Origin: a virus
Lineage: Duplodnaviria; Heunggongvirae; Uroviricota; Caudoviricetes
Virus record (IMG/VR): IMGVR_UViG_2778261165_000002
Coordinates: 1 to 7,108 of that record
Length of the DNA stretch: 7,108 nt
Direction: 5' to 3' (one strand)
Under the pieces are notes generated by a model. That model had not been told where the DNA came from. It worked only from the letters and a program-made list of their open reading frames with translations, and searched no databases. Shown here one piece after another: positions 6,186 through 6,273 of the stretch; positions within the stretch are counted from its first letter, which is position 1, and every line of letters begins with the position of its first letter. A program made the position numbers and the translations under genes.

Positions 6186-6266
6186 ATTATAACCAAAGAT
6201 AACTCAAGTTATAAAAAATAGCAATAACCTTTGTTATTTTACTTTGGATAACCGTAGTTATAGATT
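6186..6266. promoter_or_regulatory. OR region: three 14-bp operators, pR and leaderless pRM
   Basis: Operators ATAAC-N4-GTTAT at 6199..6212, 6224..6237 and 6248..6261 (centres 25 and 24 bp apart), plus an extra ATAAC half-site at 6189..6193. pR -10 TATAAT on the minus strand at 6186..6191. pRM -10 TAGATT at 6261..6266, 7 nt before the repressor ATG. Confidence 0.7.
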
Positions 6267-6273
6267 TGTGGGT

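Follow-up and report, generated by a model that had tools for sequence, protein, structure and literature searches.

In an E. coli lambdoid prophage, the gap that separates the divergently transcribed repressor and cro genes contains three 14-bp sites of the form ATAAC-N4-GTTAT, which very probably make up the tripartite right operator (OR1-OR2-OR3) of a bistable CI/Cro switch of the lambda type. The region has the features by which a lambdoid switch is recognized, namely divergent repressor and cro genes with a short gap and three dyads that overlap both of the promoters assigned here. A first-pass annotation of the sequence had proposed that these sites define the immunity specificity of the phage, and comparison with related prophages argues strongly that they would do so. 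Both the observation and the interpretation offered in that annotation are supported in their essentials.

Genes of the immunity region

The window, by which we mean the whole stretch of DNA that was analysed (7,108 nucleotides), was assigned from its open reading frames and Pfam matches to the early-right region of an E. coli lambdoid prophage, with rightward transcription drawn on the minus strand. Its sequence matches a prophage of E. coli Z1323CEC0004 (locus L005) at 100% identity, and the annotation of that locus supplies the last four entries below.

6274-6981, plus strand: cI repressor gene, 235 aa, with Pfam matches to HTH_3 and to Peptidase_S24 (the latter at E = 1.4e-17)
6162-5938, minus strand: cro, 74 aa, start MNLVIQ, YdaS/P22_Cro family, with an AAGAGG Shine-Dalgarno sequence 7 nt upstream
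5886-5929, minus strand: nutR, just past the cro stop codon, comprising boxA GCTCTTTAAC at 5929-5920 and the hairpin boxB TTCCCGCCGAAATGCGGGAA at 5905-5886
5831-5535, minus strand: cII (Phage_CII, E = 2e-48)
5806-5819, plus strand: lambda-type cII-binding box TTGCGTTTGTTTGC (TTGC-N6-TTGC), oriented towards cI from the beginning of the cII coding sequence
Further down the minus strand: O-like initiator gene
Further down the minus strand: DnaB-like helicase gene
Further down the minus strand: nin-region genes
1-547, minus strand: KilAC antirepressor gene of the nin region, truncated by the window start

The recognition helix of CI reads S29-Q-P-A-I-Q-K35 and that of Cro reads T-Q-P-A-V-H-K. CI also contains the autocleavage motifs of a LexA-like domain (LSA111-G112SG, GQS152MEP and RVK189T), which provide an Ala-Gly cleavage site and a Ser152/Lys189 dyad. 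The TTGC-N6-TTGC box, identical to that of lambda, presumably marks the establishment promoter pRE. Antirepressors of the KilAC type can inactivate CI independently of RecA, and the presence of such a gene bears on how immunity behaves in this prophage. An Rfam scan of the window at gathering thresholds gave no matches.

Beyond the window, at L005 14969-15012, a nutL element with the same boxA and boxB as nutR follows pL. Past pL and nutL (L005 15367-17000), an ISVsa5 insertion at 15436-16644 interrupts the gene for antiterminator N, an IS3 element follows further on, and the prophage is thus probably defective in N-dependent early transcription.

Three sites with identical half-sites

The exact motif ATAAC-N4-GTTAT occurs three times in the window against an expectation of 0.01 from 200 dinucleotide-preserving shuffles, none of which reached three copies. 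All three copies fall within the 111-bp gap that separates the cro ATG (6162, minus strand) from the cI ATG (6274). The sites, the predicted promoters and one additional element are as follows.

6199-6212: OR1 ATAACTCAAGTTAT, cro-proximal, inside the pR spacer, its final minus-strand TAT opening the pR -10
6224-6237: OR2 ATAACCTTTGTTAT, overlapping the pR -35 by 1 bp and abutting the pRM -35 at its opposite end
6248-6261: OR3 ATAACCGTAGTTAT, cI-proximal, inside the pRM spacer, with a 1-bp overlap with the pRM -10
6238-6266, plus strand: predicted pRM, -35 TTTACT (6238-6243), 17-bp spacer, -10 TAGATT (6261-6266)
6224-6196, minus strand: predicted pR, -35 TTGCTA (6224-6219), 17-bp spacer containing OR1, -10 TATCTT (6201-6196)
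6186-6193: extra half-site ATAAC (6189-6193, plus strand) and a perfect TATAAT (6191-6186, minus strand), 10 bp from the OR1 half-site

The first-pass annotation had described three 14-bp sites with identical half-sites and different centres between the divergent genes, and exact matches begin at 6199, 6224 and 6248, with the centres TCAA, CTTT and CGTA in OR1, OR2 and OR3, respectively. This description is confirmed apart from one detail of spacing. The sites had been placed at helical-turn intervals, but the measured centre-to-centre distances of 25 and 24 bp correspond to ~2.3-2.4 turns, which is not integral and instead follows the lambda arrangement of 24 and 23 bp. The centre of OR2 is located 42.5-43.5 bp upstream of the cI ATG.

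A fourth, degenerate site with two mismatches is present at 6189-6202 and overlaps OR1. The neighbouring element at 6186-6193, just downstream of the predicted pR -10, occurs in the OR of window-type and PA28-type phages and is missing from the OR of HK639-, L056-, L076- and L085-type loci. Its role may be that of a further pR -10 in tandem with the first, of a -10-like element close to the promoter, or of a weak fourth operator site.

The predicted promoters pRM and pR

The TAGATT hexamer that the first-pass annotation had taken as the pRM -10 can be read directly at 6261-6266, where it ends 7 nt ahead of the cI ATG as had been stated; the TTTACT -35 begins directly after OR2, and OR3 covers the spacer and enters the -10. 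In all 24 distinct OR variants a -10 hexamer (TAGATT, TATATT or TACATT) lies 6-7 nt from the cI ATG and there is no Shine-Dalgarno sequence, whereas relatives of the ATCGC type have longer cI leaders with clear Shine-Dalgarno sequences. A pRM start at the cI ATG or 1 nt before it, giving a leaderless cI mRNA, is therefore well supported by these comparisons. The annotation had drawn this same conclusion by analogy with lambda, and the analogy is sound, as the lambda sequence has TAGATT 6 nt before its ATG.

Generic scanning for promoters and terminators was uninformative overall, with 3 hits in the window against 3.3 expected. The consensus promoter scan did not list pRM, because only 8 of its 12 positions match the consensus, and on the pR strand it returned a single candidate, TTTATA-18-TATAAT, with 10 of 12 positions matched. 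This candidate defines an alternative in which the operators are correctly assigned but pR consists of a -35 TTTATA at 6215-6210, an 18-bp spacer and the -10 TATAAT at 6191-6186, either alone or as one of two tandem promoters, so that OR1 would cover the -35 and spacer instead of the -10. Besides its good match to consensus, it can appeal to the PA28 hexamer at this position, TATGCT, which retains the critical A-11 and T-7. We nonetheless consider this alternative unlikely, since the hexamer and its -35 are missing in the HK639, L056, L076 and L085 OR variants that have the same operators, while TATCTT with 17-bp spacing to a TTGxxx or TGGACA element is conserved at both pR and pL, and the HK639 record places pL on this TATCTT design.

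When OR2-OR1 and OL2-OL1 of three phage types (the window genome, PA28 and HK639) are aligned, a common layout of pR and pL emerges. The GTTAT that closes site 2 supplies, with its last T, the first base of the -35 (TTGCTA, TTGACC, TTGCCA or TGGACA); six bases after the -35 comes site 1, whose closing TAT starts the -10 TATCTT. The string GTTATCTT is retained in nearly all OR and OL variants. Placement of pR at 6224-6196 follows from this architecture, which is identical to that of pL, and from the GenBank record of HK639, in which TTGCCA-17-TATCTT is annotated as putative pL. The TATAAT at 6191-6186 may be a lineage-specific second promoter. The first-pass annotation had both -10 elements overlapping the outer sites; this stands for TAGATT with OR3 (1 bp) and for TATCTT with OR1 (3 bp), but not for the perfect TATAAT as a conserved pR -10. 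The 'putative pR' annotated in HK639, TTGGGT-17-AGTAAT, was also considered as a model for pR of the window and rejected, as the equivalent -10 here is AATGAC and the design is not conserved.

The probable left operator and sites elsewhere in the genome

The part of the window beyond the cI stop (6981) is free of sites. Downstream of cI in L005, ~840 bp beyond the end of the window, there is a pair of sites (14879-14892 and 14904-14917) that are 25 bp apart on TTGACC-17-TATCTT and are followed by boxA and boxB, and the earlier statement that OL is outside the window is thus right. The pair consists of one exact site and one ATAAA...GTTAT site, and an OL cluster is likewise present in L001-L004, HK639 and PA28. 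The genome-wide search for further sites that had been suggested as a check on the operator assignment recovered nothing beyond OR and this pL cluster, which precedes nutL and N. Specifically, HK639 (49.6 kb) contains four exact sites, three at OR and one at OL, with two more OL sites at one mismatch, and the first 50 kb of PA28 contains five sites at up to one mismatch, all at OR or OL.

Relic half-sites (AATACCTTTGTTAT, and ATAAC with a degenerate right half) are found upstream of OL2, and HK639 and L085 have a third, one-mismatch OL site 21 bp from OL2 (L005 14835-14875 and L088 34435-34448). From these observations OL3 seems to be decaying in the window lineage.

Phages that share the immunity region

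The immunity region is also present in Stx1a_10051 (99%), SH2026Stx1 (94%) and the PA28 group (78.5%), and most of the cI-OR-cro stretch is found in ~163 of 5,426 complete E. coli genomes when window-type and PA28-type copies are combined. HK639, PA28, SH2026Stx1 and Stx1a_10051 have the same CI recognition helix, a Cro that is 84-100% identical and the same ATAAC-N4-GTTAT motif at OR (three sites) and OL (two to three sites). For HK639, PA28 and SH2026Stx1, the CI and Cro helices are identical to those of the window, aside from a Thr/Ser exchange before the conserved Gln of Cro, and the OR and OL half-sites are the same. Comparison of the repressor and cro with known immunity groups, which had been proposed as a further check, thus places them with HK639, PA28 and SH2026Stx1 and apart from lambda, 434 and 933W. 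On this evidence the window prophage, HK639, PA28, SH2026Stx1 and the Stx1a phages presumably form one immunity group.

Members of this set differ outside the half-sites. Centres and spacers vary between the window and the HK639- and PA28-type phages, HK639 has a put RNA in place of N/nut, and the flanking replication genes are mosaic. The cI-OR-cro segment of E. coli 98192 (L004) is 100% identical to the window, and its three OR sites and OL pair are retained despite different flanking replication genes (a toprim primase type rather than O plus DnaB-like), with the mosaic boundary near the cro/cII junction. The cI gene of HK639 (L086 2701-3390) has residues 1-68, the DNA-binding domain, in common with CI of the window and is followed by an unrelated Peptidase_S24 C-terminal half. 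[quoted passage not shown]

It could be argued that the operators are real but that the half-site does not by itself set the immunity group, so that window-, PA28- and HK639-type phages are partly heteroimmune. Differing centres, a one-mismatch OR2 in some phages, CI C-terminal domains that alter cooperativity, or antirepressors that bypass CI could each produce this outcome. The centres do differ (TCAA/CTTT/CGTA in the window and ATGA/AATT/CGTG in PA28), the 434 operator centre strongly shifts affinity, the HK639 CI has an unrelated C-terminal domain and the prophage carries the KilAC antirepressor gene. Set against these points are the identity of the CI helices across all types, with Cro identical save for the Thr/Ser before the conserved Gln, and the retention of the half-sites at OR and OL in every type. 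Partial heteroimmunity therefore has a small chance of being correct, and we favour a single immunity group.

SH2026Stx1 CI belongs to 'Clade V' of the Stx-phage CI proteins in a study that cites it as lacking an HTH domain and in which the operators were not analysed (PMC8951638). The RefSeq CI of SH2026Stx1 (YP_009907967.1 in NC_049919.1) indeed begins at an internal start and is a protein of 189 aa without the HTH. The full 235-aa open reading frame is nevertheless intact from an ATG adjoining OR3 (L002 6353-7060), and the 'HTH-less' CI is therefore a start-codon miscall, probably made because the true start has no Shine-Dalgarno sequence. None of the three records for SH2026Stx1, PA28 and HK639 annotates an operator, and the Stx1a_10051 stretch is featureless.

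Covariation of the half-site with the recognition helices

A protein-guided scan of IMG/VR yielded 80 loci with CI 52-100% identical to that of the window. The OR triplet is present in all 73 loci with the cI helix SQPAIQK, and a search for an ATAAC site in the seven loci with another helix found none. The first-pass annotation had staked its case on conservation of the sites in phages that carry the same repressor, and this expectation is borne out without exception. The seven outlier loci keep the 14-bp geometry, the 24-27-bp spacing and the layout of OR plus OL but use other half-sites (ACAAC, ATCGC or ATAGC), each type with its own OR and OL clusters. Wherever the half-site changes, the recognition helices of CI and Cro both change as well:

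Half-site ATAAC: CI SQPAIQK, Cro [ST]QPAVHK
Half-site ACAAC: CI SQAAIQK, Cro SQQAVYK
Half-site ATCGC: CI AQSS[IV]N[RK], Cro AQSTICD
Half-site ATAGC: CI AQPSVWK, Cro KQPSVWA

These pairings agree with the 'evolutionary code' for Cro and CI proteins of Hall, Lefevre and Cordes (2005), as summarized in PMC6649833, in which Gln at H1 goes with A+2, Lys at H6 with C+6, and H3 is Ala with A+5 or Ser/Thr with G+5. Numbering the base that precedes ATAAC as +1 (N-A-T-A-A-C), the helices QPAIQK (CI) and QPAVHK (Cro) of the window accompany A+2, A+5 and C+6, as these rules predict. Gln at H1 is found with A+2 in all four half-site types, and relatives with Ser or Thr at H3 have G+5 (ATCGC and ATAGC).

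Variation within the ATAAC type is concentrated outside the half-sites. Among 15 distinct OR1-OR3 segments, 3 of 30 half-site columns vary, whereas in the centres and spacers 25 of 33 columns do (Fisher p = 1.3e-7). This contrast has some circularity, as the motif itself was used to find the segments, although protein similarity was the basis for choosing the loci. In the same 15 variants the mean number of G+C bases among the four central positions is 2.4 for OR3, 1.4 for OR1 and 0.7 for OR2, and CG is present in the OR3 centre of most variants.

That the palindromes are instead chance repeats, or sites for a host, replication or recombination protein, might be suggested by their setting in an AT-rich intergenic region, but it is scarcely credible given the 0.01 sites expected from shuffling, the perfect association with the CI helix across 80 loci, the covariation of the half-site with the CI and Cro helices, a second cluster exactly on pL and the lack of sites elsewhere in the two phage genomes scanned (HK639 and the first 50 kb of PA28).

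Comparison with known switches

In its overall plan the switch resembles that of lambda. In both, cI and cro diverge from a gap that holds three dyad sites at similar spacings (25 and 24 bp as against 24 and 23 bp in lambda), and both have an OR2 centre ~42-43 bp upstream of the cI start (-42 in lambda), a pRM -10 TAGATT that overlaps OR3 (7 nt from the ATG here, 6 nt in lambda), a cII gene with a pRE TTGC-N6-TTGC box, and an acidic residue in helix 2 (Asp24 here, aligned by hand with lambda Asp38). The lambda sites differ in being 17 bp long with a central base pair, as opposed to 14 bp with an even dyad, and in having the half-site TATCACC (TATCACCGC...) in place of ATAAC. There are also only two full OL sites here, and Cro of the window is an all-alpha YdaS/P22_Cro protein, as opposed to the alpha+beta Cro of lambda, while the CI proteins are only distantly related. 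No 17-bp operator of the lambda-group TATCACCGCCAGAGGTA type was found in the window.

At the level of the individual site the resemblance is to 434. The nearest solved structure to the N-terminal domain of CI is the 434 repressor (E ~1e-7 over 60 residues), and the HMMER alignment sets 434 TQQSIEQ opposite SQPAIQK. In 434 the first Gln of the recognition helix contacts the outer adenine, the second Gln reads position 2, and the operator centre strongly alters affinity without being contacted. Both systems have a 14-bp operator in which the outermost base is A and positions 3-4 are A-A, a recognition helix that opens with Gln, CI and Cro with similar recognition helices, and a centre that is probably read indirectly. 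They differ at position 2, where 434 has C and the window has T, matching the change from 434 Gln29 to Pro31, and at position 5, where there is a fixed C here and a Lys in place of 434 Gln33; in addition, Cro of the window is not a copy of the CI domain as in 434. Locus L077, whose helix SQAAIQK has Ala where 434 has its second Gln, uses ACAAC-N4-GTTGT, which falls inside the 434 pattern. The 434 operators are 14-bp ACAA-N6-TTGT sites (3CRO and 1RPE DNA, PMC2504314), as compared with ATAA-N6-TTAT in the window, so that length and fold are common to the two but specificity is not. Based on this analogy, a 434-derived model for recognition of ATAAC by SQPAIQK appears coherent.

The switch of 933W, also a lambdoid Stx phage, likewise combines three sites at OR with no more than two at OL (PMC10742460). 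Its operators measure 15 bp, are centred on a base pair and have a conserved core of another sequence, and its repressor is without cooperativity (PMC3317979). We examined 933W as a phage of the same immunity type and rejected it, as its 15-bp operator does not correspond to the 14-bp even dyad; BAA2326 was similarly rejected because it has a lambda-like CI and weakly symmetric sites. The PA28 record carries the note 'Cro of BP-933W', which is an annotation label. Outside the HK639/PA28 group, the nearest phage records have CI identities in the low 30s percent, for example POCJ13.

The switch can thus be described as a lambda-type switch with 434-like site geometry that, judged by its operator sequences, which differ, is outside the lambda, 434 and 933W immunity groups. 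The first-pass annotation had described the half-site as unlike those of lambda, 434 and P22, and direct comparison substantiates this for lambda and 434 and extends it to 933W; the P22 half-site we likewise take to be different.

A model for the switch

In the following model, the inferred elements are binding to the operators, its cooperativity and order of affinities, the points at which transcription starts, and activation of pRM. A CI dimer would read each 14-bp dyad through its 434-like helix-turn-helix with the recognition helix SQPAIQK, such that the Gln at the first position reads the outer A, and Ala and Lys read A and C at half-site positions 4 and 5, while the four central bases are probably without CI contact. 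Lysogens would keep pR (TTGCTA-17-TATCTT) silent through CI at OR1 and OR2, and pL through CI at OL1 and OL2. CI on OR2, which abuts the pRM -35, would probably also activate pRM through Asp24 of helix 2, the lambda counterpart of which, Asp38, is a positive-control residue. Abundant CI would occupy OR3 and shut pRM, thereby limiting its own synthesis. Since the pRM transcript is predicted to begin at or beside the AUG, the cI mRNA would be leaderless. Upon induction, RecA-stimulated cleavage at Ala111-Gly112 would allow pR to fire, and Cro (TQPAVHK) would then occupy the same sites and silence pRM. Establishment would proceed via cII and the TTGC-N6-TTGC box at 5806-5819. [quoted passage not shown]

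An OR1 > OR2 > OR3 hierarchy and cooperative binding cannot be assumed for this switch, given that the 933W repressor is without cooperativity (PMC3317979). Because the half-sites are identical in all three OR sites, only the centres or the sequence context could give rise to a hierarchy, and the G+C-rich centre of OR3 recalls indirect readout by the 434 repressor. In its fullest form, this idea would place the hierarchy wholly in the non-contacted centres, with OR3 weakened by its CG, and would add to this a repressor family in which at least four orthogonal specificities (ATAAC, ACAAC, ATCGC and ATAGC) share a 14-bp scaffold, obey a simple code from helix to base and go with freely exchangeable C-terminal domains. 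We offer this composite proposal tentatively and regard it as possible but somewhat doubtful.

Implications

The switch is an ordinary example of a well-known kind and involves no new mechanism. Within the searchable literature, its immunity type seems not to have been described before at the operator level. Searches with the exact site strings, motif spellings, HK639, and VT1-Sakai and Stx1 operators retrieved no prior account of the operator from that literature, and no footprint, EMSA or immunity test was found there for the HK639/PA28/window group. Older publications (Fattah et al. 2000, Hall et al. 2005 and the paper on the VT1-Sakai genome) might list it.

The analysis provides an operator-level definition for one immunity group of E. 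coli lambdoid prophages, a group that includes Stx1-converting phages in which the CI/operator switch governs prophage induction. It makes homoimmunity among Stx1 phages, HK639 and cryptic prophages predictable from sequence, and it corrects the annotation-based claim that one of the Clade V CI proteins is without a DNA-binding domain. The natural covariation between recognition helix and half-site also presents four specificities on one scaffold, which would be usable for orthogonal repressor design.
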